A stretch of DNA of 64,000 nt, taken from a virus (Duplodnaviria; Heunggongvirae; Uroviricota; Caudoviricetes). Made by a program: the position numbers and the translations under genes. The notes beneath the pieces are model-generated. The model was not told where the DNA came from. It did not search any database and was given only the letters and a program-made list of their open reading frames with translations. Positions 3,221 to 64,000 of the stretch are shown piece after piece. The stretch spans positions 1 to 64,000 of IMG/VR virus record IMGVR_UViG_3300023184_000076. One strand, written 5' to 3'. Position 1 is the first letter of the stretch. Each line of letters begins with the position of its first letter.

Positions 3221-4126
3221 TTATTTGTTCAGGTTTAAAAACAATCCTGAACCACCTGCTACCGTTGTTGGTAATTTACCGTCCCAAGCGGATGCCTTTA
3301 AGTACTCAATATACATAGGTGTTATTTGACTTTGTTTGATCTTAATTGAAAGTGCCGAAGCATTTGCGTTAATTATAGTTTCTGCAGAATCAGCTCTTGC
3401 CACGGCCACCTTACGTCTTCCTTCAGAGATTGCGGCGATTGCCTGTTGTTCTGACGCTTCCGCTTGTTGGATTGCCTTTGTCTTTGCGATGATCGCCTCC
3501 TGTAATGTTTCAGGTGGTGTTATATTTGTTCTCAATTGAGACACATTAAACCATTTAGATAACCTAACATTACATTCCGCAACAATTGCTGATTCAAACG
3601 CTTGTCGGTGATTAAAAATACTATCAACCTCCCAAGTATTCGCAACATCATTAACTGCTCCGATAATTGCGTTTTTCAACCATCCTTGTTCAACATCTTT
3701 AATTGGTCGTCTCAAGTTTACAAACATATCACCAATCGCATCCTCACGTAATGAGTAGTTGAATGTTGGTTTGATAGTTGCACCAAATCCACCTTTTAAG
3801 ATTACAGATTGATCGTCATACTCAATGTGTTGTTGGAAGATTGGGAATTCTAATACTTGTGTTGTCCAAGTGTTATATACAACCCAACCCGTTTTGTATT
3901 GGTAATTTGATACACCACGTTCTGAACCACTTAAATTAACAACAATTCCTTTGTTTCCAGCATCAATTCTTTCCAATGAATACGGTTGTACTCCACTAAC
4001 TAAAAGACCTACCACAACAACCAAAACTGGTTTTAAAAATGGCATATTCACCTCATTTTTTACGTTTCTTAAAAACATAAACACTCCTACGATCACCGAG
4101 ATCACTAAAATTGCAATACTAATCAT
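3221..4126 (-). CDS. SPFH/band-7 (prohibitin/HflC-like) membrane protein
   Basis: N-terminal TM helix, SPFH-like core, C-terminal Ala/Glu-rich coiled segment (AIQQAEASEQQAIAAISEGRRKVAVARA) typical of band-7 proteins. Confidence 0.6.
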   Translation of the reverse strand: MISIAILVISVIVGVFMFLRNVKNEVNMPFLKPVLVVVVGLLVSGVQPYSLERIDAGNKGIVVNLSGSERGVSNYQYKTGWVVYNTWTTQVLEFPIFQQHIEYDDQSVILKGGFGATIKPTFNYSLREDAIGDMFVNLRRPIKDVEQGWLKNAIIGAVNDVANTWEVDSIFNHRQAFESAIVAECNVRLSKWFNVSQLRTNITPPETLQEAIIAKTKAIQQAEASEQQAIAAISEGRRKVAVARADSAETIINANASALSIKIKQSQITPMYIEYLKASAWDGKLPTTVAGGSGLFLNLNK

Positions 4127-6410: not shown

Positions 6411-6732
6411 GATCTGTTCTCATTTCACCCTTTTCACCACAGGTTTCACAAATCTCATAACTTTGATTTCCAGCTAAATGTATTCTTTTAAAAATTTCAT
6501 CAGATCCGGTATTGATGTAAAATCTTAAACCACCAAACTTTTCTTTAACCTGACATATCTGTTTGTCCCACCCAAGTTTTATTAGATCCTCAATAAGATC
6601 TTTAATTATCGGGTACCAACCACTATCAACATCAAACACCTCACAGTGTTTAATACTTGGTCTATCTGAGTAAAACCCATTCTCAAGTCCACCTATGGAC
6701 TCAAGGAAATCATTCATTTCTTCTTTAGTCAT
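6346..6732 (-). CDS. hypothetical protein with C-terminal CxxC...C..H motif
   Basis: ORF; CETCGEKGE...LCNKHYEE. Confidence 0.45.
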   Translation of the reverse strand: MTKEEMNDFLESIGGLENGFYSDRPSIKHCEVFDVDSGWYPIIKDLIEDLIKLGWDKQICQVKEKFGGLRFYINTGSDEIFKRIHLAGNQSYEICETCGEKGEMRTDLGWYSTLCNKHYEERKSNIQR

Positions 6733-7303
6733 CTTTTAAAAACTTTAATATTTTTTCTTTGATGCCAGATTGTTTAATACCTTCAGCACCTTTTGGTGTT
6801 AATACAAAATTATCTAATCCCCAATCTTTCCAACCCTCACCGTTTTTACCCATATCAAGGTCATCTACCGCAACCCAATGTGTAATCTCAGGATGGTCAT
6901 GTAAGTATTGTTTAATCTCAATAACACGAGTCATCTCTAAGTCCCATTGTGGTGACCATACCCAAACCATATCATTATACCAAGTACATTGACCTAAGTT
7001 TGGTGTTAAGGCAATTGGTTTTTTTGAGATTCCTTGTGATTCATAGTACTCACCCATCTCCTCAAGGTTTGCCCATCGTTTCCAATCAGATGAGGTAACA
7101 ATCTCAGCTCCCGTTTCTTCAATAATTTTATTGAGAATCTTAATTGCCTTCTGGTTGAAGTTATCAAATCGATACTCCAAAGGGAAATCTCCCATAGACA
7201 TGGATAATTTAATCCCGTCCCATTTCATTTGTTTCTTACGTCGTCCTCCCCACTCTGAAGATAAACAAATAACTCCATCGTGATCTAAAAATATTACTTT
7301 CAT
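6725..7303 (-). CDS. HAD-superfamily hydrolase-like (possible nucleotidase/phosphatase)
   Basis: N-terminal FLDHDGV motif (HAD motif I DxDGV). Confidence 0.4.
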   Translation of the reverse strand: MKVIFLDHDGVICLSSEWGGRRKKQMKWDGIKLSMSMGDFPLEYRFDNFNQKAIKILNKIIEETGAEIVTSSDWKRWANLEEMGEYYESQGISKKPIALTPNLGQCTWYNDMVWVWSPQWDLEMTRVIEIKQYLHDHPEITHWVAVDDLDMGKNGEGWKDWGLDNFVLTPKGAEGIKQSGIKEKILKFLKDD

Positions 7304-7305
7304 AA

Positions 7306-7581
7306 TTACATTATTGATCCTTTAATTTTAAAAACATATTCAATCCATTCTTCAATTATCTCATAAAGATCATTCAACATATCTTCTTTTATATTCAACG
7401 CTTTACATATTGGTTGAACAAAAGTTCTATATTCTAAAAAGATAATTTCATCTTTTAAGTTAAATCTAAAATAAACTTCACCTTCTTTATGATAACAAAG
7501 ATTTTTTGGGCTACACACTAAGTCACCGTAATGTGTGTCCAAAAAATTTAAAATAACATATATTTTATTTTTCCCTATCAT
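7306..7581 (-). CDS. hypothetical protein (91 aa)
   Basis: ORF. Confidence 0.45.
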   Translation of the reverse strand: MIGKNKIYVILNFLDTHYGDLVCSPKNLCYHKEGEVYFRFNLKDEIIFLEYRTFVQPICKALNIKEDMLNDLYEIIEEWIEYVFKIKGSIM

Positions 7582-7677
7582 TTAAGAATTTATTGAATGG
7601 ATGGTCCTTATCTTTATTGATTTTTCTAGCAAACCTTGATGTCATTAATATTATCAATAAAAGTATAATCCCTACCA
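7566..7677 (-). CDS. small TM peptide (~37 aa, MVGIILLLIILMTSRFARK...), not in ORF track
   Basis: Own translation; TATATTTG motif 5 nt upstream. Confidence 0.3.
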
Positions 7678-7682
7678 TATTG

Positions 7683-7690
7683 CAAATATA
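7683..7690 (-). promoter_or_regulatory. TATATTTG motif
   Basis: Upstream of small peptide ORF and 7306..7581. Confidence 0.3.
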
Positions 7691-7713
7691 GTAAATTAAT
7701 TCCAAATAAAAAA

Positions 7714-7733
7714 CCCCACCTGTTGGGATGGGG
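7714..7733. terminator. hairpin CCCCACCtgttggGATGGGG flanked by A- and T-runs (bidirectional)
   Basis: Downstream of 7754..9154 stop. Confidence 0.5.
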
Positions 7734-7753
7734 TTAAAAATTTTAGTAATTTT

Positions 7754-9154
7754 TTATTTATTCCTGTTGTAATCATCACACAATTTCCAAATTTCTTTTT
7801 TTGTAATTGATGTTTTACCTGTTTTACTTTTTAACACATTTTCCGTGTTTTTATCAAATTTACCATTTTTAGTAGTTTTTAAACAAGCTTGTAATGCAAA
7901 TATCTCATCGTCTTCATCATCTTTACACCCAAGACTGTAAGTACCATTACAACTTTTATATACCGTTTTATCTTCCTCACCTGCACCTCCAACTTTCGCA
8001 ACATTTTTACATTTTGCATCTTTTGGGTTTTTTTCACAATATACTCTTAATTTTTCCGCACATTCTTCAGGATTTTTTTCACAATAATCTTCAGCTTCAG
8101 ATTGTGCGTAGTTTTTAGTCATGTCAACTAATGATGTCGCAATTGGTTCCCACCCATAATCAAAGTCACCATCAAGGGCTTCTAATAATGATTCGTCAAA
8201 TGACTTTTCATACACATCACTCACTTTACAAAAATCGGCAGGACTTTTTAATGACTTAAATACCTTATAAATTGCATCTTCATCTGTTCCTAAACCTTCC
8301 ATAGCATGAAATAATTTACCAGAAAGTGCTCTTGCTTGATCATCGGTTAAAAATCTTTTCCATTTTTTTCTATCGGGACTTGTTTTACACATATCAAATA
8401 ATCTTGTGATCATTCCCATGTCATCATCTTTTGTCATACCCCACACACCTAATGCGGTGATACCTATTACCCCTAATGCTACCCAACCAACAGGACCTAA
8501 ACCTAAAAAAGTTGCTGCCGCTGCCGTTTCTCCACCTACCGCCGCAGCCGCTCCCGCACCCGCAACTTCAGCACCTACAACTTCCGCACCTGTTGCCGCA
8601 GCGACCTCAGCTCCCGCCAATTCAGCTCCCGCAACTTCAGCTCCCGCAACTTCAGCTCCCGCAACTTCAGCTCCCGCAACTTCAGCTCCCGCAACTTCAG
8701 CACCTGTGGATTCAATCCCCGCAAGTTCCGAACTTGAAGCAACATTTTTTCCACCACCAACAACTGACTTAGTGGTTTGTAACTCACCAGCGGTATTTGC
8801 AGTTTTTTCAATATTTTTAGTAGATGTAAGATCTTTAACCATATCAGCTTCTTTTTCAGGTCTGTTAATCCATTCAGATCCTTTAGGTACTTTACCTTTA
8901 TCAACTGCAGAGTCAAAAATATCCCCATCAGGTGTTTTATACCTTCTTGGTTTATTATCGGAAGTACCAAAATCATCATAGTCGTCGGTTAATCCTTTTA
9001 AATAATCCCTACCTTTTAATACGTCAGCATAACCATCTTGTTCTTTTAATTTCTTACGAGTTTTTGTGTTTTCATTTAAGGTTTTAGAACGATCATACCC
9101 CATAAGGTTTTTAATCCTATTCAATTCCTCAAGTATAATTTTATTATCTTTCAT
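7754..9154 (-). CDS. membrane-anchored protein with (AGAEV)n repeat, TM helix and a C-terminal annexin-type repeat
   Basis: KLFHAMEGLGTDEDAIYKVFKSL ... VYEKSFDESLLEALDGDFD matches the annexin repeat consensus (K-G-x-G-T-D-E ... Y..L...L.GDFE). TM segment FLGLGPVGWVALGVIGITALGVWGM. Start moved to MKDNKIIL. Confidence 0.55.
   Translation of the reverse strand: MKDNKIILEELNRIKNLMGYDRSKTLNENTKTRKKLKEQDGYADVLKGRDYLKGLTDDYDDFGTSDNKPRRYKTPDGDIFDSAVDKGKVPKGSEWINRPEKEADMVKDLTSTKNIEKTANTAGELQTTKSVVGGGKNVASSSELAGIESTGAEVAGAEVAGAEVAGAEVAGAEVAGAELAGAEVAAATGAEVVGAEVAGAGAAAAVGGETAAAATFLGLGPVGWVALGVIGITALGVWGMTKDDDMGMITRLFDMCKTSPDRKKWKRFLTDDQARALSGKLFHAMEGLGTDEDAIYKVFKSLKSPADFCKVSDVYEKSFDESLLEALDGDFDYGWEPIATSLVDMTKNYAQSEAEDYCEKNPEECAEKLRVYCEKNPKDAKCKNVAKVGGAGEEDKTVYKSCNGTYSLGCKDDEDDEIFALQACLKTTKNGKFDKNTENVLKSKTGKTSITKKEIWKLCDDYNRNK
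8566..8700. repeat. tandem 18-nt repeat (cagctcccgcaacttcag x5, with degenerate flanking copies) encoding the (AGAEV)n tract
   Basis: Visible directly in sequence; GC-rich. Confidence 0.7.
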
Positions 9155-9182
9155 AAAACTTTTTATTATAAATACTTGGTAA

Positions 9183-9219
9183 AACAAAAAACCCCCACCA
9201 TTTCTGATGAGGGTTTTAT
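9183..9219. terminator. hairpin AAAACCCCCACCA-tttc-TGATGAGGGTTTT
   Basis: 11/13 bp stem with A/U-rich flanks. Confidence 0.4.
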
Positions 9220-9392: not shown

Positions 9393-9830
9393 TTAAATTT
9401 GGGTTATCGCATTATGAGTATCTAACTCATCTTGGATTACCTCAATCTCGTTTTCCAACCCTTTAACAATACCATCTCTATCAACAATTGAGATTTCTGA
9501 TGTCATTGTAGGAGTATTCTCAGACCGTCTTGAGTATTTATCAGTCGAAGTACCTTCTGTACAATCCATAAATTTGATTTTCGACACAATCGACTTCAAC
9601 TCAGACATTCTGAATATCTTACCATACACGGGTGAGTTTGCTTGGTGAATCTTTGTTTTTAATTCAACCAACTCATTGGTTAAGGATATCATCTTGTCCA
9701 AAGACTCTGTCGGTGAGTATGGTCTATCATTACCTACCTCAACACTATTGTACACGAGTACTTTTTGTGTCTCTTCGGTAATTTCTTTTACCAATTTATT
9801 CTTTAATTTTAACGCTTGTTTAATATTCAT
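9393..9830 (-). CDS. hypothetical protein (145 aa)
   Basis: ORF. Confidence 0.5.
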   Translation of the reverse strand: MNIKQALKLKNKLVKEITEETQKVLVYNSVEVGNDRPYSPTESLDKMISLTNELVELKTKIHQANSPVYGKIFRMSELKSIVSKIKFMDCTEGTSTDKYSRRSENTPTMTSEISIVDRDGIVKGLENEIEVIQDELDTHNAITQI

Positions 9831-11348: not shown

Positions 11349-11377
11349 AAAAAAGTGACCCCATCAAGTTAATGGGA
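11349..11377 (-). terminator. hairpin GTGACCCCatcaagttaatGGGAGTCAC plus U-run
   Basis: Overlaps stop of RNA ligase gene. Confidence 0.5.
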
Positions 11378-12502
11378 GTCACCCACGTTATTTTTTTCAC
11401 CATAGATCAAGTAGTCAGGGTTGATTACTTTAGAAACCTTTCTACGGTCACCAGTTACGGATTTCACAACTATACCTTCGTGAGGAACTTTAGTACCTTC
11501 TATGAAGTTACCGAAGACGTATTTGTCTTGTTCTTCTTTATCCCAATTACCTTGGTATAACAACTCAACCTGTGGTAACTCTAAACAATCAAAGTGTACA
11601 GTTTCATTTATGTATGGTTGGTATTCTCCATCAACTTCAACATCAAATCCTACAAACTTAACATCAGTCAAACCGTACTCGTAGTTTTTTTGTATACCCG
11701 CACCATATATCTCTCCGTATATAACAACACCATCAGTTAAGTTAAATGGTTCGTAAGTATCTTTTACGTGAGCCCACAACTTACCTCTTATATCGTAGTT
11801 GTTCGCCACAGTTTTCCACACATCAGTATCGTAGAAACCTTGAGAGTCAGATCCTTTTTCAACGTTGTGAGAACCATAGACATATTCAAACGCCGCCCAT
11901 TGATTACCAAATAGTACTTTAACACGATCCCACAAAGAAAGTTTTTTCTTTCTAACTATTCCGTAACGAGCGTTAGTTCCGTGAAGTTTACGAGTTATAA
12001 CAACTTCATCTTCCTCATTGAACATATCAGGTACATTCTTTTGGTTAGGGAATTTGTAGTAAACTTTGAAGTTAGGGTTTTGGTGGTATTTTATTTTACG
12101 TCCACCAACACTCAACTGAACGGTCTTAACTGGTGGTTCGTATTTGGTAACTCCCAATATAGTCATCATGTCATCACCATCATTAACATTGTTCTCCAAT
12201 GATTTTGGTGCCAAATATTTGAATGGTATTAACAAACACTCAGAGTAAACTCCACGAAGTTTTACAGTACGAACTCTTTGACCTTTACGAAGGTAGTTAG
12301 TAACTTCCATCAAGTCAGATAATGCCTGAGGTATTACCGCATCTGTGGTCGCAACAACAACCTTATCTCCAGATTGGTATTCACCTTTTTTAGTTATGGC
12401 GTTCCATCCACCAACTAACACTTGTTCTATGTTATCCGCCCCTTCTATTGGTTTAACCTCTCCGATTACACCAACGTAACATACACTATTTTGATTTTCC
12501 AT
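11369..12502 (-). CDS. ATP-dependent RNA ligase, Rnl2-like nucleotidyltransferase
   Basis: Motif I KLHGTN (KxHGxN lysine-adenylate site as in T4 Rnl2 KIHGTN), motif IV EGIVVK, motif V K..KVINPDY. Confidence 0.65.
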   Translation of the reverse strand: MENQNSVCYVGVIGEVKPIEGADNIEQVLVGGWNAITKKGEYQSGDKVVVATTDAVIPQALSDLMEVTNYLRKGQRVRTVKLRGVYSECLLIPFKYLAPKSLENNVNDGDDMMTILGVTKYEPPVKTVQLSVGGRKIKYHQNPNFKVYYKFPNQKNVPDMFNEEDEVVITRKLHGTNARYGIVRKKKLSLWDRVKVLFGNQWAAFEYVYGSHNVEKGSDSQGFYDTDVWKTVANNYDIRGKLWAHVKDTYEPFNLTDGVVIYGEIYGAGIQKNYEYGLTDVKFVGFDVEVDGEYQPYINETVHFDCLELPQVELLYQGNWDKEEQDKYVFGNFIEGTKVPHEGIVVKSVTGDRRKVSKVINPDYLIYGEKNNVGDSH

Positions 12503-14919: not shown

Positions 14920-15573
14920 TTAACCCACAACCCCAACAATATCATCTAAGTGGTGATCATCATTTATTTCAGACATCACTATTCTTTTATCCATCATATG
15001 TACAATCTCAGTTATACTATATGGTTGAAGGTTGTTTCCATCAACTCCAACGTCCAATCTTTTTCCTTTGCCCCATTTTCTACCTGAAGGTAAGTGTACG
15101 TGACCATGAAGGTGAACAACACCTTTACTAAGTCCATTCCAACTTGCAAATGGGTAGTGAGTCATCACAAAGTTCTGACCATCAATATTAACCTGTAAGT
15201 AATCACTAACAGATAAAAACATATCTTTGATGTTATCTCTGTTGTTTTTAATGTGGTGATCGTGGTTTCCAAGAACCAAGTGAATATTTTTACATACCAA
15301 TCGGTCCAAGAAAATTCTAATAAACTCAAATCCACCAAATGCAATATCACCTAACATAATCAAAGTATCGTTCTGACCAACCTTTGAGTTAATGTTGTCA
15401 ACCAATGCGTTATTCATTAGTTCTAATGTTGGGAAATCTCTCGTATTATGATCCGGTACTTTTCCATCAGATGTTCTCCAATCAGTCACACCTCTACAAA
15501 TGTTTTTATGGTTGTAGTGTGGATCCGATGTAACCCACACTCTACCTGTTGTCAATATTTTATCAAATTTCAT
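14920..15573 (-). CDS. calcineurin-like metallophosphoesterase
   Basis: GDIAFGG ... GNHDHH ... GHVH motifs of binuclear metallophosphatases. Confidence 0.6.
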   Translation of the reverse strand: MKFDKILTTGRVWVTSDPHYNHKNICRGVTDWRTSDGKVPDHNTRDFPTLELMNNALVDNINSKVGQNDTLIMLGDIAFGGFEFIRIFLDRLVCKNIHLVLGNHDHHIKNNRDNIKDMFLSVSDYLQVNIDGQNFVMTHYPFASWNGLSKGVVHLHGHVHLPSGRKWGKGKRLDVGVDGNNLQPYSITEIVHMMDKRIVMSEINDDHHLDDIVGVVG

Positions 15574-24278: not shown

Positions 24279-24551
24279 TTATTTATTTTTTAATGTTTCT
24301 ATGTGATGTTCTAAATACCATAACGCTTTTTTAAGGTCCTGTAATTCTTTATCCGAATCTTTCTTACCCGCCCTTGATATATACTTTACCGTATTTCCTA
24401 ATGAGAATCCTAATTCCCAAGCATCAATTACTTTGATTGCCTCATAAGGGTTATCTTCTCCTCCGTAATGTTGGGGGTGATTAACTTGTTCTATTTTTGG
24501 TGGGGGGCACATACAAAGTACGTTAGCTCCACATACACATTCTTTTTCCAT
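24279..24551 (-). CDS. DUF3310-family phage protein
   Basis: PQHYGGEDNPYEAIKVIDAW ... GNTVKYISRAGKK ... DLKKALWYLE. Confidence 0.65.
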   Translation of the reverse strand: MEKECVCGANVLCMCPPPKIEQVNHPQHYGGEDNPYEAIKVIDAWELGFSLGNTVKYISRAGKKDSDKELQDLKKALWYLEHHIETLKNK

Positions 24552-25669
24552 TAGTCTTCTCTATATTCTTTTAATAATTCATCATTTGAAATGGTCCCAT
24601 ATTTCTCATTAAGACCTTCCATATCAACATCCTTATTCATCATTATTTTAACATCGTAGATTTGATCGGTAGTTATTAAAGATATGTCAATTTCTTTAAT
24701 AATTTTGTATGGGTCAGCATTTGATCCAGGTCTTCTATCCTCAACATAACCTTTCCAATTTTTTGCGGTATCTCTTGGAATTCGAATTGATGCCCCACGA
24801 TCTGAAACCCCCCAACTAAATTTATCAATTGATTGTGTTTCAAATTTACCAGTTAAACGGAGATTGTTATCTGACCCGTAAGCTTTTATATGTGCTTCAT
24901 GTCTTACCTCAAACGCATTAAACAATGATATAAAATATTTTTCGTTACCATCATTTCTCATTTTATCTGTTGAGAAGTTCGTATGAAGTCCAGACCCGTT
25001 CCATTCCCCTTTTTGAATTGGTTTTGGATGTAGAATAATCCTATAATTATATTTTTCAGAAATTTTAAACAAAAAGTACCTAGTCATCCACAAATCATCA
25101 CCCGCTTTTAATTTACCTTTTGTAAACACTTGGTATTCCCATTGACCTAACGCAACCTCAGCGTTAATCCCTGTAATGTCAATTCCATATTTTAAACACA
25201 TATCCATATGTTCTTCAACAAAATCTCTTCCGGCAACATATTCTCCAACACCACAATAATATTTACCTTGTGGTTCCAAGTTATTTTCGTCGTGACCTAA
25301 AATACATTTGTTTTTTCTATCGTAGATAAAATATTCTTGTTCAAACCCAAACCACAAATCTTCTTGATCTCCAATTAGTTCTGATCTTGTATTAGTTTCG
25401 TGTGGAGTACCATCAGAATTCATTACTTCACACAACACGTAAATTGTATTTGTATGATCAGAAAAATAATGTCTAACAGGTTTTAAAATACAATCAGAAC
25501 TATTACCTTCCGCTTGTAATGTTGATGACCCATCAAAGTTCCATTCAGGAAAATTATTTAGAACTAAACAGTTTTTAATTTGTTCATAGTCCATAATTTT
25601 AACTTTACTTCTTAAATTTGGTTCAGGCGTATACCCATCAATCCACACATATTCTAACTTAACTTTCAT
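24551..25669 (-). CDS. glnA: glutamine synthetase, type II-like (372 aa)
   Basis: N-terminal signature FDGSSTLQAEGNSSDCIL and ATP-site signature KPIQKGEWNGSGLHTNFS both match the GS PROSITE patterns; EYVWIDG N-terminus. Confidence 0.85.
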   Translation of the reverse strand: MKVKLEYVWIDGYTPEPNLRSKVKIMDYEQIKNCLVLNNFPEWNFDGSSTLQAEGNSSDCILKPVRHYFSDHTNTIYVLCEVMNSDGTPHETNTRSELIGDQEDLWFGFEQEYFIYDRKNKCILGHDENNLEPQGKYYCGVGEYVAGRDFVEEHMDMCLKYGIDITGINAEVALGQWEYQVFTKGKLKAGDDLWMTRYFLFKISEKYNYRIILHPKPIQKGEWNGSGLHTNFSTDKMRNDGNEKYFISLFNAFEVRHEAHIKAYGSDNNLRLTGKFETQSIDKFSWGVSDRGASIRIPRDTAKNWKGYVEDRRPGSNADPYKIIKEIDISLITTDQIYDVKIMMNKDVDMEGLNEKYGTISNDELLKEYRED

Positions 25670-28216: not shown

Positions 28217-28297
28217 ATTACAATAAATATTTAATGGTTTACAAAATATGAGTCCTATCTGATATTTATAATTAAATAAACCTATTAAAACAAATAT

Positions 28298-32899: not shown

Positions 32900-33217
32900 T
32901 TAATTTAATATAATGTCCCCAAACTTAGTCTTTTGGATAAACCCTTCCACTTTGTTTGCATAAAGTAACTTTTGGTTTAATTCAGGTGCTTTGAGGTCAA
33001 CCACAACATCAATAATTTGTTGTTTGGTCAACACAAAGTCTTCACCTTTACTATGGTTCTCAATAGATTTTTCTTTCAATTTTTGAAAGAACTCTTCTTT
33101 TTGTACTTCACCAACAAGATCCATAAAGTCACCTGGGTTTTTTTCAAAGAAGAGTATTAGTTGACTAATATAAATTTCTATGTCTACGTTCATTATTATG
33201 ATCTTATAGGTCCACAA
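32900..33217 (-). CDS. hypothetical protein (105 aa)
   Basis: ORF. Confidence 0.45.
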   Translation of the reverse strand: MWTYKIIIMNVDIEIYISQLILFFEKNPGDFMDLVGEVQKEEFFQKLKEKSIENHSKGEDFVLTKQQIIDVVVDLKAPELNQKLLYANKVEGFIQKTKFGDIILN

Positions 33218-35085
33218 TGTTTCTTCAATTCAGGAGGGAAATTAATAAACCAAAATCCCTCATCTTCTGTCATATATTCTTCTAATTTTTTAGGTATTCT
33301 CATACCAGGATTTGAGTTTTCAGTTGAGAAGAAGTTCAAACAATATAACTCACCGAACGCCTCAGGAATACTCTCTAATTGCGGATTATTTGGTAAGTTT
33401 ATAAATTTCAATTTGGTACAATTTCCAATACTTTCAGGAATTGATTTAACCATATTATCAATAATCAATGTTTTTAATTCGGTTAATTTACCAATACTTG
33501 ACGGTATATCCAAAGCAATTGTACTTTTACTTGTATTTTCCATTTGGATCATAGTTGTATTAGACGGAATGTGTTCAAAGAAATCTTCAAATCCAAATAA
33601 AGCAACATACTTAGAGTTATCATCTTTTGGATATTCAAGTCCAACGTAACCACTACTACTAACTCCACCCAATTGACCTGAGAATTTTTCTCTTAATTTT
33701 TTCTTATTCTCTCTCATTATAGGACTATTGATGAATGCAATATCAGTGTCATTCAATTGACCTAAACTTTTTGACATCAACCCTTGTAGTTTTCTTGCCG
33801 CATAATATTTCAATACACTAGGTTCTGAATTATTGATCATGTCCGCAGTCAAGTCCATTCCCAAACCTAAGTATTTGTTTTTAAGATTCTCAGTAAAATT
33901 ACTATAAATTTCATTACCGTTACCTCTGTATGTTAAATCAGGACTTGCAATCTCAAGCCACATTTCAGCCGCTTGTTCACTACCAAGTTCTTTAATCGCA
34001 TCTTTATTGATACTAGTGTTTTTGAAATTATTCATTTCTCTTTGTTCCTCCGCAGATAATGGATCGGCAACAAACAAATGTTCTTTACCTTCTAATTTTG
34101 GAACTTTACTAACAATCGTAGACCAAGCCTCTCTCTTATGTCCTGAATATCCACCAGCCATATTTTGACCATCAGCAATTCTCTTACCACCGTAAGGTTC
34201 AACTAAGATAACAACCGCATAGTTAAGATCCCCAAATGGTTTATCTTTATCGATAACATAATAAATTGTTAAGTTATGACCCAAACGATAGTTATAGTAC
34301 ATATTACCACCACCTGATTTAGAAATGCACCAACTTCTTCCGTTGGCCAATTTAATACATTGTTCTTTACCACTTGGTTTGAAGATTAATAAGTTATTGT
34401 CATCATATATTGTTTCAATATCCTTATAATCATCTTTACTATCTTTAATATCATCCGTTAAGTCTCCCATACCATCTAATGTATGTTCAAGCTCATCAAA
34501 ACTCATAAACAACAATGGTGGTAAATTAGCCGGTAATCTATGGTATAGATCTAGGTATGTTGATACATAATATATTAATTGTTCAGGTGTCACATTAGCC
34601 CCGTCTTCCTTAAATTTCTTAAGTGCCGCCGCAGTCAACATGGTATTAAACTTACTCTGTAAAAACTCAACTAATTTCAAATAAGGCATTTTAAGAACAT
34701 CTCTTTGATTTAAAGGTAAAATAGGAAATAATTCATAGAATTTACGTAAAGCCAATTTAACCGCATTTTTGTCGGCTCCTTTGTTCGCCTCCATATATTT
34801 TTTGAAGATACCTTTTTCTTGTTTTTTAATCTCTTTGGATAAAACAATATTTTTAACAACACTATAACTTAATTTAGTAATGTCCCTCTGATCTTGTGGT
34901 AAACCACCTTTATATTTATCGAATGCGTTAATAACCGCAGTTATTTGTTCTTCCGTATCTTTAGTTGTAGGTTTGTATTTGTCAATTAAAAATTTAACAA
35001 CCTTTTCAGACATTGCCTCACTCACAAGACGTTTACCGTTTGTGTTTTCTTTAATGACAGTTGATAATACCTTAAGTAATTCCAT
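33196..35085 (-). CDS. large protein with C-terminal leucine-rich repeats
   Basis: LTELKTLIIDNMVKSIPESIGNCTKLKFINLPNNPQLESIPEAFGELYCL (LxxLxLxxN/LxxIP periodicity). Confidence 0.55.
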   Translation of the reverse strand: MELLKVLSTVIKENTNGKRLVSEAMSEKVVKFLIDKYKPTTKDTEEQITAVINAFDKYKGGLPQDQRDITKLSYSVVKNIVLSKEIKKQEKGIFKKYMEANKGADKNAVKLALRKFYELFPILPLNQRDVLKMPYLKLVEFLQSKFNTMLTAAALKKFKEDGANVTPEQLIYYVSTYLDLYHRLPANLPPLLFMSFDELEHTLDGMGDLTDDIKDSKDDYKDIETIYDDNNLLIFKPSGKEQCIKLANGRSWCISKSGGGNMYYNYRLGHNLTIYYVIDKDKPFGDLNYAVVILVEPYGGKRIADGQNMAGGYSGHKREAWSTIVSKVPKLEGKEHLFVADPLSAEEQREMNNFKNTSINKDAIKELGSEQAAEMWLEIASPDLTYRGNGNEIYSNFTENLKNKYLGLGMDLTADMINNSEPSVLKYYAARKLQGLMSKSLGQLNDTDIAFINSPIMRENKKKLREKFSGQLGGVSSSGYVGLEYPKDDNSKYVALFGFEDFFEHIPSNTTMIQMENTSKSTIALDIPSSIGKLTELKTLIIDNMVKSIPESIGNCTKLKFINLPNNPQLESIPEAFGELYCLNFFSTENSNPGMRIPKKLEEYMTEDEGFWFINFPPELKKHCGPIRS

Positions 35086-35127
35086 AGTAAAGTTTTATTA
35101 TAAATATTCCAGTAGTGTAAAAAATAA

Positions 35128-39645: not shown

Positions 39646-41238
39646 TTATTGAGTGTTTTTCTTATAAGACATTAAATTCATAATACGTGTAAAATCCTCA
39701 TTGATTTTTTGTTTTTTCTTTTCATCAATAGATTCTAACTTAGTCATAATTTTATCTCCCTCATTTTCACCTGATTTGTCAGTTACGACAGGTTGAGGTG
39801 CTTTATTGTAAGCCTTACGTTTAATTTTAGCCAATAAATTATCTTTTCTAATCTTATTTCTCTTCTCATTATTTGGTGTCTCAACTGCGTTTGCCCATTC
39901 AGGATTATTACCCGTTCTTGAAGACCCAACTACGTTGTCAGTTACCCAATCTTCATCAGGATGTATTTCATCGTAATCTAAGTTTTCTAAACCAGCAGCA
40001 GTGAAGTTATCAATATAATCTTCAATTGCTCCTGAAGCAACATAAGCTTTTTTATCCATTTTAGCCAATTCACCATTTCCTTTTGGAAAATGTTTTGGTG
40101 ACATTTCATATTCACCTTTAGATCCGTCTTTCAAATAATCTTTCATTTTTTTGGTCAAATCTTTCATATAACCTTCTTCATTTTTTTTTGACGTTTTAAT
40201 AGATCTTTCATATTCAGCATATCCAGCCGGTGTCTTACCTTTATTGAATTTACCTTCTTCTTTTAAAACAATATTTTCAATCATTTCTTCAAACTGGTTT
40301 TCATTAAATAAAAGTTTTTCTCTTTTACCATTTACTGCGGTTGTTAATTCATAGAACACATTTTCATTTACATCTTCTTTTTTTCTTAACATTTTGAAGT
40401 CCTGCGAATCCAATCTTCCATTTTTATTTTTATCCAATCTGCGTTGATTTCCGTAAAATTTTTCATCCAACTCACCTTCATCGGACGCATAAGTTGATAT
40501 TTCACCAAATCCAGGAAGAAAAAAACTATCGTCATCACTTTCATATTCATGTGACATATTTTTGATTTTATCAAAATGACCTTGATACCATTCTTTTGTT
40601 TTATCGTCCGTTGAATCTGTTTCGTATGAGTGTGCCTTAAATTTTTCACCATCACGTTTTCCTTTTAAAGTATGTTTTCCGTTATCTAACCAATTATGAA
40701 TAATTTCATCATCTTTTGTTCGGTTATGGGTATTTCTTGATTCAGCATCATCTTCTCTCATTTCGTGGTAAACACCTTCGTTCATGTCATCTTCAACATC
40801 TTTATGTCTGTCTTCACGAGATCTCATACCCATAGCATCTCTCATAGGAGTTTTAAATTTACCTTTATTAGCTCTGATAGCATCTCTCATAGGAGTTCTA
40901 AATTTACCTTTATGAGATCTAATGGCATCTCTCATAGGTGTTTTAAAATCCATTTCGTCATCTTCTTTCATTTCTCCACCACATTCAGAACATTCACCTT
41001 CTCTCATTTCACCACCACATTCATTACATTCTTGTGAGTCACCTTCGGACATATATCCACATTCGGAACATTCACCTTCTCTAACCATTCCACCACATTC
41101 TGAGCATTCAGCTTCTTCAACGTAGTCAAAAGAACTGCCAGGTTTGTTAAATTTTAATTTTCCCATAACTTCATTTGCCTTATCTTCTAAAGTTTCGTTG
41201 ATAAGTTTTTGAATTTTATTTTTTAAATAATTGTTCAT
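39646..41238 (-). CDS. Cys-repeat protein: 4x (E)GECSECGG zinc-ribbon-like motifs, 3x KTPMRDAIR..KGKF repeats, EF-hand-like loop DKNKNGRLDSQD
   Basis: Internal repeats visible at protein and DNA level (40820-40960). Confidence 0.55.
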   Translation of the reverse strand: MNNYLKNKIQKLINETLEDKANEVMGKLKFNKPGSSFDYVEEAECSECGGMVREGECSECGYMSEGDSQECNECGGEMREGECSECGGEMKEDDEMDFKTPMRDAIRSHKGKFRTPMRDAIRANKGKFKTPMRDAMGMRSREDRHKDVEDDMNEGVYHEMREDDAESRNTHNRTKDDEIIHNWLDNGKHTLKGKRDGEKFKAHSYETDSTDDKTKEWYQGHFDKIKNMSHEYESDDDSFFLPGFGEISTYASDEGELDEKFYGNQRRLDKNKNGRLDSQDFKMLRKKEDVNENVFYELTTAVNGKREKLLFNENQFEEMIENIVLKEEGKFNKGKTPAGYAEYERSIKTSKKNEEGYMKDLTKKMKDYLKDGSKGEYEMSPKHFPKGNGELAKMDKKAYVASGAIEDYIDNFTAAGLENLDYDEIHPDEDWVTDNVVGSSRTGNNPEWANAVETPNNEKRNKIRKDNLLAKIKRKAYNKAPQPVVTDKSGENEGDKIMTKLESIDEKKKQKINEDFTRIMNLMSYKKNTQ

Positions 41239-62243: not shown

Positions 62244-63584
62244 TTAAGCCCTAGTTTCACTAAATTGTTTAACAGGATTTTTAATTGTTAGATTACAACA
62301 TTCACAATTATTTAAGATCGCTTTCTCAATAATTACATTAGTTGTTCGATTAACCGAATAACAATTAACTAAAGGAGTAATCGGATTTATTGTGTCTGTA
62401 AATGTACCACTAACAGTTGTCGTAGAATTAAAAGTTAATGAGTTCCAAGTGGTAACATTAGTATTTGTATAAACAGATCCTGAATCACAAGGGTTAAACG
62501 CAACACTCGTACTTAACATAGGTGATGGTGTTGTAATAGGTGACCCATTAACAATAAGAGTAACCACATTATTGTATACCGCTACGGTTGGTGATGGTGC
62601 CACTTTAAATACACTATTATGTTTTAAATCAAAAGTGATAGACGCACCAACAGGTAATGTAGGTGTCACATTTATATTAAATGAGTTAGGTCCCGTTGAG
62701 ACCAAAGCAATTTGATATGTTTGATTAGGTGGGGGAGCCAATAATGTAACACTTTGTGTTGTTGTTATGTTATTTGAGTCTTTCACTTTAACAGAATAAA
62801 TTCCACCAGATAAATTAGTAAACACAGGACTCGATTGATATGTAGTCCCACCATTAATTGAATATTGGTATGACGGTGTCCCGCCATTTGCAGTTATGAT
62901 AATACTACCATTACTACCACAAGTTGGTGATTGACTACTTATTGACATATTAACTATAGGATTATCAATACATAGTCCTTCTGTTACCGTAATAATAAAT
63001 GTCCCCGAATAACTTCCACCTAAGAATTGCCATCCCGTTAATGGAGGTACTGATGTATTTGAATTGTATATAATACCATCACTCCATCCATCTACTAACC
63101 ATTGATTTGTAGTACCTGTACTCCAATATATATTATATAAGTCATCATCAGATACCCAAGTAGGGTATCCATTTAAATAACCATTAAATAAGAATTGATT
63201 TGTTTGATAATTTGACCCAGTAGTATCTATAAAATTCATACATAAATCACCATAAGGAGGTAATGTGGTTGTTGAGGTAGAGGTTGTTGATGTAGTTGTT
63301 GTTGCAGTTAAACTACAAATTGTATTTGCAGTAAAATCACCATAAAAATCAACGATAGTTGCATGGTAATCTCCAACACCAAGATTATCTTTTGTTGGAC
63401 CTGAACCACCTTCTTCCCAAGTAATATTATATGGTGGAGTTCCACCACTAACCATTAAACTAATTGCCCCATCATAAGATTGTGGAGAACTTGGATTAGT
63501 TGTATTACAAATAGCAGTCATTGGAAATAACGTTACTATCGCACATTCATTTACAGGTTTTATTGATATCGGTTGAGTTCCCAT
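62244..63584 (-). CDS. Thr/Ser-rich structural-type protein (Ig-like/β-rich)
   Basis: Composition, adjacency to PT-linker proteins. Confidence 0.5.
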   Translation of the reverse strand: MGTQPISIKPVNECAIVTLFPMTAICNTTNPSSPQSYDGAISLMVSGGTPPYNITWEEGGSGPTKDNLGVGDYHATIVDFYGDFTANTICSLTATTTTSTTSTSTTTLPPYGDLCMNFIDTTGSNYQTNQFLFNGYLNGYPTWVSDDDLYNIYWSTGTTNQWLVDGWSDGIIYNSNTSVPPLTGWQFLGGSYSGTFIITVTEGLCIDNPIVNMSISSQSPTCGSNGSIIITANGGTPSYQYSINGGTTYQSSPVFTNLSGGIYSVKVKDSNNITTTQSVTLLAPPPNQTYQIALVSTGPNSFNINVTPTLPVGASITFDLKHNSVFKVAPSPTVAVYNNVVTLIVNGSPITTPSPMLSTSVAFNPCDSGSVYTNTNVTTWNSLTFNSTTTVSGTFTDTINPITPLVNCYSVNRTTNVIIEKAILNNCECCNLTIKNPVKQFSETRA

Positions 63585-63601: not shown

Positions 63602-64000
63602 TTATTTATTTTTTTCCAAAAATGACTTCATTACTTCAATATATTTAATTGTAGAACTATTTTTGTCCACATAATTAAAGAAATTAATGTCCTTTCTTAA
63701 ATCCTCAATCGGATTCCTGTTTATGAAATCTCCCTTATAAAATTTCGTGGTCTTTAAATGGTCGGTAACACCTGCCATATGTAATATTGGTTTTTTATTA
63801 TAAATATCAATATCATCAGTTGCCCAAGAAAAATCTAACTCATTTGTGATTTTTGTTTCATATCCCGAATTCCACATATTCCATAATAACGACCACATTT
63901 CTGCGGTCCAAAATTGTATTTGTCCTGGATTAATTGGGAACCTTCTTTGGTAATCTAACATTTGATTATATAGTGGTGTACAATCATCATAAATCTTACC
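63602..64000 (-). CDS. hypothetical protein; frame stays open upstream to the window edge, so N-terminus may lie outside
   Basis: No in-frame stop between 63962 and 64000. Confidence 0.4.
   Translation of the reverse strand, partial: GKIYDDCTPLYNQMLDYQRRFPINPGQIQFWTAEMWSLLWNMWNSGYETKITNELDFSWATDDIDIYNKKPILHMAGVTDHLKTTKFYKGDFINRNPIEDLRKDINFFNYVDKNSSTIKYIEVMKSFLEKNK

Follow-up and report, generated by a model that had tools for sequence, protein, structure and literature searches.

A single annexin repeat in a predicted membrane-tethered, peptidoglycan-binding protein family of uncultured phages

Introduction

Annexins are calcium- and lipid-binding proteins best known from animals. They are sparse in prokaryotes and their origin is debated, and the only systematic survey lists viral homologues as missing evidence (PMC3894181). 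The same survey describes the type II Ca2+ site as a GxGT(D/E) motif in the AB loop followed by an acidic residue about 39 positions downstream, GxGTD/E with a hydrophobic or Trp tip being typical of bacterial and plant annexins (Kodavali et al., 2014, PMC3894181). Here, we describe a phage gene that encodes a 466-residue protein with one annexin repeat. It lies on the minus strand, at 7754..9154, of a 64,000-nucleotide stretch of DNA (positions 1 to 64,000 of IMG/VR record IMGVR_UViG_3300023184_000076, Caudoviricetes), the whole of which is called the window below.

The closest described proteins are the bacterial single- or few-domain annexins of Cytophaga hutchinsonii, other Bacteroidota and myxobacteria, which share with the phage protein a single repeat and a GxGTD/E loop with hydrophobic or Trp tip. 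They likewise combine with non-annexin domains, sometimes with a transmembrane (TM) segment, and their bias toward Bacteroidota fits the host inferred here (PMC3894181). Unlike them, the protein is phage-encoded, predicted to be periplasmic and tethered to the membrane. Its fusion to a peptidoglycan-binding domain did not appear in the parts of the survey that were searched, where the word "peptidoglycan" has 0 occurrences (PMC3894181). The eukaryotic annexins A4, A5 and A6 (PDB 1i4a, 1avh, 1avc) have the same five-helix repeat and the same M-x-G-x-G-T...D/E type II site, but they are built on a four-repeat core, whereas the phage protein has one repeat and therefore no convex membrane-binding disc. 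It also differs in being TM-anchored, in a compartment predicted to be oxidising and Ca2+-replete, instead of acting as a cytosolic sensor triggered by Ca2+.

An earlier annotation made from the letters alone (the sequence-only reading) had regarded annexins as essentially undescribed in phages. This view holds: the survey reports none in viruses (PMC3894181), full-text literature searches returned no paper linking annexin domains to phage-encoded proteins, and 50,697 deposited phage genomes contained no relative by megablast with the 6 kb around the gene or by tblastn with its C-terminal half. Each domain is familiar; what is novel is the architecture and its phage setting.

Results

A single annexin repeat with an intact type II Ca2+ signature

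7754..9154, minus strand: complete gene, 466 residues and stop codon, read as an open reading frame (ORF) with an ATG start at 9154
8117..8332, minus strand: single annexin repeat, helices A-E, residues 275-346 (profile match, PDB match, AlphaFold2 model)

The peptide KLFHAMEGLGTDEDAIYKVFKSL...LLEALDGDFD, quoted as annexin-like by the sequence-only reading, was found at residues 280-332, and the repeat is genuine as judged by its Pfam match, a reciprocal profile search and the predicted fold. Pfam PF00191 matched residues 281-331 with an E-value of 1.5e-5 and 25.5 bits (gathering cutoff 25). The same family was matched in 54 of 57 relatives (E<=0.01), and the relative P0142 scored 29.3 bits. 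Comparison with PDB sequences by phmmer retrieved annexins VI, V, IV, XII, III, VII, VIII and I, always over residues 275-350, the best full-sequence E-values being 2.8e-14 for annexin VI and 1e-9 for annexins V and IV. Conversely, when 1.84 billion representatives were searched with a profile built solely from the phage family, 3,003 proteins matched at E<=1e-3, of which 964 also reached E<=1e-10, and the multi-stretch matches that were checked were true annexins in Pfam (E 1e-41 to 1e-92).

An AlphaFold2 (AF2) model of residues 205-466, built on a 51-sequence alignment, shows the annexin fold with all five helices A-E and a predicted local distance difference test score (pLDDT) of about 95 over residues 275-346. 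Leading Foldseek matches in the PDB were annexins and annexin fusion constructs, superposed over 70-71 residues at 1.7-2.0 Å with 25-28% identity and a probability of 1.00; the E-values were weak (about 0.05) because only some 70 residues, one small repeat, can be aligned. The four-repeat annexin core is not present, a single stretch being matched in the 466-residue protein.

When the repeat was aligned to annexin V, M285, G287 and G289 fell at the backbone-ligand positions and D330 opposite Glu72; we take these positions and the bidentate Glu72 to be the Ca2+ ligands of annexin V. The type II signature is intact (M285-E-G287-L-G289-T290-D-E plus D330) and well conserved among 79 unique family sequences: G287 and G289 in 69 each, T290 in 72, D291 in 74, E292 in 78 and D330 in 72. 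A hydrophobic residue (L, W, V or I) occupies position 288, the tip of the AB loop, in 70 of the 79. These conserved ligand positions suggest that the repeat may bind Ca2+ and phospholipid.

A word-index search with an annexin-only profile returned only fragments of the same family and thus gave no lead to the donor lineage of the repeat. A similar module was observed in an 801-residue uncharacterised protein of an uncultured Caudovirales phage (BFVD A0A6J5RF64; 85 columns, 1.7 Å, 29% identity). The annexin module is thus not unique to the family, but it is unannotated there. The proteins P0073-P0219 of the exhaustive search, from public (meta)genomes, include very large ones of up to 4,329 residues with 5-14 annexin-type repeats. 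A second annexin-like module associated with phages, P0070 (L059 5001-5417), is a stand-alone single repeat of 138 residues (KGVGTDED) on a 114-kb contig that looks frameshift-prone.

A C-terminal domain with a peptidoglycan-binding fold

7757..7960, minus strand: four-Cys mini-domain with the PG_binding_1 (peptidoglycan-binding) fold, residues 399-466

The sequence-only reading missed a peptidoglycan-binding domain at the C-terminus. The last 70 residues follow the conserved pattern C-x-G-x-Y-x-x-G-C ... Q-x-C-L-G ... (D/N)-G-K-F-(G/D)-x-x-T ... C, and modelled alone this module gave a pLDDT of 89.6 and the three-helix fold of peptidoglycan-binding domains. Weak PG_binding_1 matches were found in 10 of 15 relatives (best E 0.0024). 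In P0142, which retains the N-terminal motif, the TM segment, the annexin repeat and the twin-Cys hairpin, a canonical PG_binding_1 domain scores 39.4 bits (cutoff 23) at the same position, and the Annexin cutoff is also passed. In P0057 the slot of the wall-binding module is occupied by LysM. These two domain swaps point to wall binding as the function of the C-terminal slot, and the domain of the window protein would accordingly be expected to bind murein.

In contrast to the PG_binding_1 domains of SleC (9h68), SleB (6tci), Burkholderia phage AP3 (5nm7) and phiKZ gp144 (3bkh), no catalytic domain is attached. Compared with them, the phage module is miniaturised and stapled by its four Cys, and the window copy has drifted (NGKFD for DGKFG) below Pfam thresholds.

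Membrane segment, cysteines and predicted topology

9068..9142, minus strand: N-terminal amphipathic helix and loop motif KIILEELNRIKNLMGYDRSKTLNEN, residues 5-29, predicted cytoplasmic docking element
8870..8947, minus strand: second conserved motif RRYKTPDGDIF...KGKVPKGSEW, residues 70-95, predicted cytoplasmic
8435..8509, minus strand: predicted TM segment FLGLGPVGWVALGVIGITALGVWGM, residues 216-240, with no charged residue and nearly invariant in the close family
8333..8434, minus strand: juxtamembrane helical segment, residues 241-274, with the invariant C256 (helices in the AF2 model)
8006..8116, minus strand: helical spacer with the twin Cys motifs YCEKNPEEC ... YCEKNPKDAKC (C358, C365, C373, C382; long AF2 helices)

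As anticipated by the sequence-only reading, the annexin repeat is preceded by a single TM segment predicted from hydropathy at residues 216-240, with a Kyte-Doolittle 19-residue maximum of 1.87. All 10 Cys of the protein lie C-terminal to this segment and none before it, an arrangement kept throughout the family. Of 79 sequences, all have C256, 78 have C309, 77-78 have the four Cys of the wall-binding module and 60-62 have those of the spacer. On the other side of the membrane segment, E9, Y20, S23, T25 and E28 of the N-terminal motif are invariant or nearly so, and G77, K86, G87, P90 and G92 of the second motif are at least 90% conserved. No signal peptide able to export the 215-residue N-terminal part was found.

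We infer an N-in/C-out topology, because an extracytoplasmic location is expected of wall-binding modules and of conserved structural Cys, and because the N-terminal part is not exportable. The annexin repeat, about 35 residues past the membrane, and the wall-binding domain would both be periplasmic. The repeat would then face the periplasmic side of the inner membrane and not the cytoplasm, which changes the mechanistic picture.

The string GATFLGLGPVGW of the TM segment is shared with a 1,257-residue chromosomal protein of Stutzerimonas (L008 5187-8960, L009 1751-5524). Nothing else is common to the two proteins, and the resemblance is probably convergence of a Gly-rich TM helix.

A low-complexity tract encoded by a slippage-variable repeat

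8510..8734, minus strand: Gly/Ala/Glu/Val tract, residues 141-215 (75 residues, 0 Lys/Arg, 12 acidic, 57% Gly+Ala)
8607..8701, minus strand: 15-nucleotide (nt) tandem repeat encoding (AGAEV)n (Tandem Repeats Finder, 6.3 copies, 97% match)

The tract had been described as seven AGAEV units encoded by an 18-nt tandem repeat. The DNA repeat is there and does encode AGAEV units, but Tandem Repeats Finder gave a period of 15 nt and not 18. Only five units are exact AGAEV, the number seven being right for contiguous xGAE(V/L) units, and there are nine units in total. Five DNA units are identical (CTGAAGTTGCGGGAG, or GCTGAAGTTGCGGGA in the coding register, which reads AEVAG) and the flanking units have diverged.

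The repeat had also been put forward as a candidate for slippage, and comparison of copy number bears this out. The gene on the 149-kb ENA contig ERZ3460575 NODE_115 differs from that of the window by exactly one 15-nt unit, with 0 substitutions in 1,386 nt. Over the surrounding 11.9 kb the two sequences are 99.87% identical, with one mismatch in addition to the 15-nt gap. Tract length ranges from 18 to 102 residues over the family, and other lineages have repeats of their own: 15-nt units encoding GAGAV (3.4-3.7 copies), 15-nt units encoding GAEVV (3.4 copies in one locus and 2.2 in a close relative), and units of 24 nt, 27 nt (4.0 copies) and 9 nt. Since the repeat unit differs from lineage to lineage, the tract must have expanded and contracted repeatedly and independently, always in frame.

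A phage-restricted superfamily and its gene cluster

The phage context of the protein, assumed by the sequence-only reading, is supported by homologues in 47 IMG/VR viral loci, on contigs of up to 309 kb; one family member lies on a 292-kb JGI lake contig (Ga0209296_1000009). Sequence search collected 60 clusters at 90% identity and about 20 at 50%, all metagenomic. No true homologue was found in 185,579 representative bacterial and archaeal genomes, in a scan seeded with two close-family peptide patterns that could miss distant ones; its sole return was the Stutzerimonas protein with the similar TM string. The superfamily thus appears restricted to viral or metagenomic contigs.

Distant members, at 25-35% identity, keep the N-terminal motif (MVQPKYSPEEALERIKLMMKYDxSKTLNEN, the equivalent of residues 5-29), the Gly/Ala-rich hydrophobic region and the C-terminal wall-binding module. 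It is the middle module that varies, being an annexin repeat with AMKGVGTDE, a repeat with the degenerate AB loop DAKGNWNDDED, or, in L047 and L056, something else. A hidden Markov model (HMM) of the N-terminal motif matched only the superfamily itself, annexin-less variants included, and the idea that the motif is a widely shared signal of the capsid-targeting type was dropped. As N-terminal motif, TM segment and peptidoglycan-binding module persist without annexin, these proteins would primarily serve to tether a cytoplasmic N-terminal helix, through the membrane, to the wall. Often, though not always, an annexin repeat would be added and give a further hold on the membrane surface.

Distant lineages have the gene within a conserved cluster with the order F1, F2, F4, F3, annexin-family gene, F6, F5, F7.

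L006 5023-10247, with equivalents in L034-L055: conserved cluster
Cluster partners: F1, about 490 residues, acidic, CxxC...CxxC; F2, 100 residues; F3, 81 residues; F6, about 330 residues; F5, about 235 residues
Cluster partners on the opposite strand: F4, lipoprotein-like; F7, ClpP-like
39646..41238, minus strand: F1-like gene in the window, 30 kb from the annexin gene

None of the partner families had a PHROG or NCBIfam match. F1 and F6 start with a related helix (...E-K-x-x-I-L-(D/E/S)-(M/Q)-H-K...) that is also present in some annexin-family members, which suggests a docking or oligomerisation handle. The possibility that the cluster is a structural module was discarded, its flanks in distant lineages looking like auxiliary metabolic enzymes when judged from their sequences alone.

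Gene boundaries and flanking elements

9161..9174, minus strand: upstream element TATTTATAATAAAA, 6-19 nt 5' of the ATG, candidate phage promoter or initiation element
9188..9217, minus strand: terminator-like hairpin and T-run ending the upstream gene, position conserved in related loci
7712..7735, minus strand: terminator-like hairpin and T-run directly 3' of the stop codon
9161-9174(-), 28263-28276(+), 35093-35106(-), 63793-63806(-): copies of the extended upstream motif (A/G)TATTTATA(A/T/G)(A/T)(A/T)AAA

Translation was assigned to ATG 9154 and not to the upstream TTG 9187, because homologues open at the equivalent Met, the gene call on the near-identical ENA contig begins at the same Met, and the extension would cross both the terminator-like hairpin (9217-9188) and the conserved element at 9161-9174. 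This hairpin closes the upstream gene, so that a new transcription unit begins at the annexin gene, which with a terminator-like hairpin on each side looks like a self-contained unit.

The TATTTATAATAAAA element precedes the gene in loci of both close and distant family members. In its extended form it is enriched in the window (4 copies, 0.33 expected), and the core TATTTATA sits 11-45 nt 5' of about 11 window ORFs. This AT-rich element stands close to start codons, often straight after a terminator hairpin, and may represent a phage-specific promoter class giving near-leaderless mRNAs. Co-regulated lysins were considered for two proteins of 728 and 725 residues that both have TATTTATA upstream. 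The two are mutually unrelated and had no relatives among PDB sequences, and the idea was abandoned.

The 172-nt gap downstream of the gene holds a putative TTG-initiated ORF of 46 residues (7565-7705, minus strand) with a strongly hydrophobic N-terminal half, uncalled on the related public contig. The upstream neighbour (9393-9830, minus strand; 145 residues) has a sub-threshold match to NCBIfam DIP1984 (E 9.4e-6, 25.9 bits, cutoff 70). At locus L005 the upstream neighbour is instead a 235-residue protein with a TonB_C domain.

Phage genome and probable host

3221-4126, minus strand: SPFH/Band_7 (flotillin/stomatin-like) protein, conserved with the annexin gene in one syntenic block of related contigs, where the two are about 6 kb apart
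24551-25669, minus strand: glutamine synthetase-like protein (Gln-synt_N and Gln-synt_C)
33196-35085, minus strand: 629-residue leucine-rich-repeat protein, with an extended TATTTATA element upstream
62244-63584, minus strand: 446-residue protein with SprB repeats

The window has 84 of its 93 ORFs on one strand (minus), a G+C content of about 31% and a Shine-Dalgarno-like sequence at -20 to -4 in 3 of 93 crude gene calls. It encodes an RNA ligase, an SbcC-like protein, HAD_SAK_2, Metallophos and the SPFH/Band_7 protein, which is a second eukaryote-like membrane-organising module of this phage. Its core enzymes are less than 30% identical to anything deposited, placing it very far from cultured phages, too far for the nearest ones to indicate a host. 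No informative match for the annexin protein or its neighbours came from PHROGs, NCBIfam or PADLOC. Absence of Shine-Dalgarno sequences is linked to Bacteroidota. Because of the few such sequences, the SprB repeats and the 31% G+C, the host is probably a member of the Bacteroidota. The phage itself is a large, uncultured one of fresh water. The SprB-repeat and leucine-rich-repeat proteins are possible host-surface interaction proteins.

An apparent RNA-repair toolkit was observed near the gene (window 6725-7303, 11369-12502 and 14920-15573, minus strand; L001 3176-3577 and 16446-17180), comprising an RNA ligase (PHA02142 OB domain and RNA_ligase), a HAD_SAK_2 phosphatase, Metallophos, an AAA_33 kinase-like protein and a PolyA_pol/CCA-adding-like protein.

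Discussion

The arrangement of modules points to a bitopic inner-membrane protein that would work as a Ca2+-dependent clamp between membrane and murein and carry a cytoplasmic helix on a variable spacer, a reading to which we give a probability of about 0.55. After insertion, some 225 C-terminal residues would be periplasmic and fold oxidatively, their ten Cys forming up to five disulfides. The distal PG_binding_1-fold domain would grip murein, while the annexin repeat, by means of its type II Ca2+ site and hydrophobic AB-loop tip, would attach to the anionic phospholipid head groups that the inner membrane exposes to the periplasm. In this way the protein may pin the membrane to the wall at a fixed point. 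On the cytoplasmic side, the amphipathic N-terminal helix would be presented on the acidic, flexible Gly/Ala spacer, whose length replication slippage would alter repeatedly, and would probably recruit, or oligomerise with, phage partners bearing a related N-terminal helix.

Such a layout recalls the wall-anchored organisers FtsN, FimV/HubP and ExeA/EpsAB. These, too, bind murein through a periplasmic domain and cross the membrane once, and their cytoplasmic part is acidic or of low complexity and terminates in a short conserved peptide to which partners are recruited. The phage protein is nevertheless unrelated to them beyond the peptidoglycan-binding fold, carries an annexin repeat, is phage-encoded, and differs in polarity from FimV/HubP.

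Several observations weigh against this reading. The Pfam annexin score of the window copy exceeds the cutoff by only 0.5 bit. The window copy has no PG_binding_1 (PF01471) sequence match, even at E<=10, so that its C-terminal domain is assigned because of its fold and its relatives and not because of its own sequence. AF2 confidence is low over the TM region (pLDDT about 57-61), and the positive-inside rule is uninformative, since the N-terminal flank of the TM segment has no Lys or Arg and a Lys/Arg cluster lies 15-30 residues after it. Finally, some lineages have no GxGT loop (DAKGNWNDDED) or no annexin at all, and therefore Ca2+ and lipid binding cannot be essential to the core job of the superfamily.

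A holin-type protein that times lysis, in the manner of the T4 class III holin T, would make different use of the same parts: it would build up in the inner membrane and trigger or gate the formation of holes, with lysis timed by the slippage-variable spacer and the state of the murein sensed through wall binding. Holin T is an N-in/C-out single-TM protein whose cytoplasmic helix is short and whose periplasmic domain is large and contains a disulfide. The topology and periplasmic Cys predicted here fit this, as does the highly conserved Gly/Ala-rich TM segment. The self-contained gene unit, with its own upstream element and terminators, would also suit a holin, and in some loci TATTTATA(A) is partly like the T4 late promoter, whose consensus is TATAAATA. 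However, homology with holin T is not detectable, the phage protein is twice its size and has wall-binding and annexin modules, and we know of no holin with either kind of module. Family members, at 297-511 residues, are much above known holins, no holin family was matched in Pfam, PHROGs or NCBIfam, and no recognisable endolysin is adjacent to the gene; a nearby 728-residue PG_binding_1 protein has no recognisable catalytic domain. On balance, we consider a role as holin improbable.

The predicted periplasmic location of both the membrane-binding and the wall-binding module would also suit superinfection exclusion. Made in the infected cell, the protein would then resemble T4 Imm and Sp in function, coating the inner membrane on its periplasmic side, together with the adjacent murein, as an envelope shield and blocking the tail lysins or DNA conduit of later phages, or lysis from without. 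A moron-like organisation with its own terminators agrees with this, and the SPFH/Band_7 scaffold in the same block suggests investment in membrane upkeep. Yet there is no likeness to known exclusion proteins, PADLOC was negative, and neither the cytoplasmic N-terminal helix nor the partner genes, all of them conserved, would have a part to play. This explanation, too, seems unlikely to us.

Chances are slimmer for a virion-packaged ejection protein, with the N-terminal motif as a capsid-targeting propeptide cut between the last two residues of T-L-N-E-N, the hydrophobic tract and TM segment inserting into the host membrane once ejected, and the annexin repeat and wall-binder anchoring the DNA conduit. 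To a protein that arrives from outside, either binding module would be of use. In the cluster of the distant lineages, members of three different families begin with a related helix and then an (I/L)-x-E site, and a ClpP-like protease gene is adjacent. But (I/L)-x-E carries little information, and the HMM of the N-terminal motif finds no further carriers. Ten structural-looking Cys need an oxidising compartment, whereas virion proteins fold in the cytoplasm. The genomic setting argues in the same direction, since the genes on either side of the cluster look, as far as can be read from sequence, like auxiliary metabolic genes and not like head or tail genes, and in the window lineage the gene sits among RNA-repair genes.

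A further alternative concerns the AGAEV tract, which could be a folded pentapeptide-repeat beta-solenoid and not a flexible spacer. The period of five residues, with Ala at i-2 and Val at i, would suit a solenoid, and residues 141-206 matched by phmmer the PDB chains beta1, 6beta1 and 3beta1 and NP275-NP276 (E 1.9e-6 to 0.19); the beta1 series presumably consists of designed pentapeptide-repeat solenoids. NCBIfam penta_Alr5209 was also matched (E 0.0045), but with 17.1 bits against a cutoff of 125, there was no Pfam Pentapeptide match, and the PDB and NCBIfam matches are driven by composition. In relatives the tract has units of 3, 8 or 9 residues or no periodicity, at 18-102 residues, and this variation in unit and length means that a specific solenoid fold is not conserved. 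We give the solenoid very little credence.

A two-component spanin of the Rz type is a type II membrane protein with a coiled-coil periplasmic domain and a gene for an outer-membrane lipoprotein next to or inside its own. This reading was rejected, the periplasmic part here being globular annexin and peptidoglycan-binding domains, the flanking genes of the window (145 and 91 residues) having no lipoprotein signal, and the lipoprotein-like F4 lying near the gene in distant lineages only and on the opposite strand.

Returning to the membrane-murein clamp, its physiological purpose can only be proposed tentatively. Our favoured guess is stabilisation of the envelope, or anchoring of a membrane platform, during a long infection; the SPFH/Band_7 scaffold is encoded in the same conserved block as the annexin gene. 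In a bolder and rather doubtful version, the annexin repeat would do the work of a Ca2+-dependent membrane-to-wall clamp by which the inner membrane of the host is preserved or resealed while a long jumbo-phage infection lasts, and the spacer would be tuned by slippage at the level of the population. If true, this would be a viral or prokaryotic counterpart of annexin-mediated membrane repair, and phages would be a reservoir and vehicle of annexin repeats, with bearing on the unresolved origin of annexins.

Whatever its purpose, the protein represents a sizeable phage-restricted family in which a single, apparently functional annexin repeat is membrane-tethered and fused to interchangeable peptidoglycan-binding modules. 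It offers a simple and experimentally tractable system in which the action of one annexin repeat at a bacterial membrane can be studied, as well as a natural case of a slippage-variable spacer in a membrane protein, and it points to an unrecognised way in which phages handle the envelope of their host.

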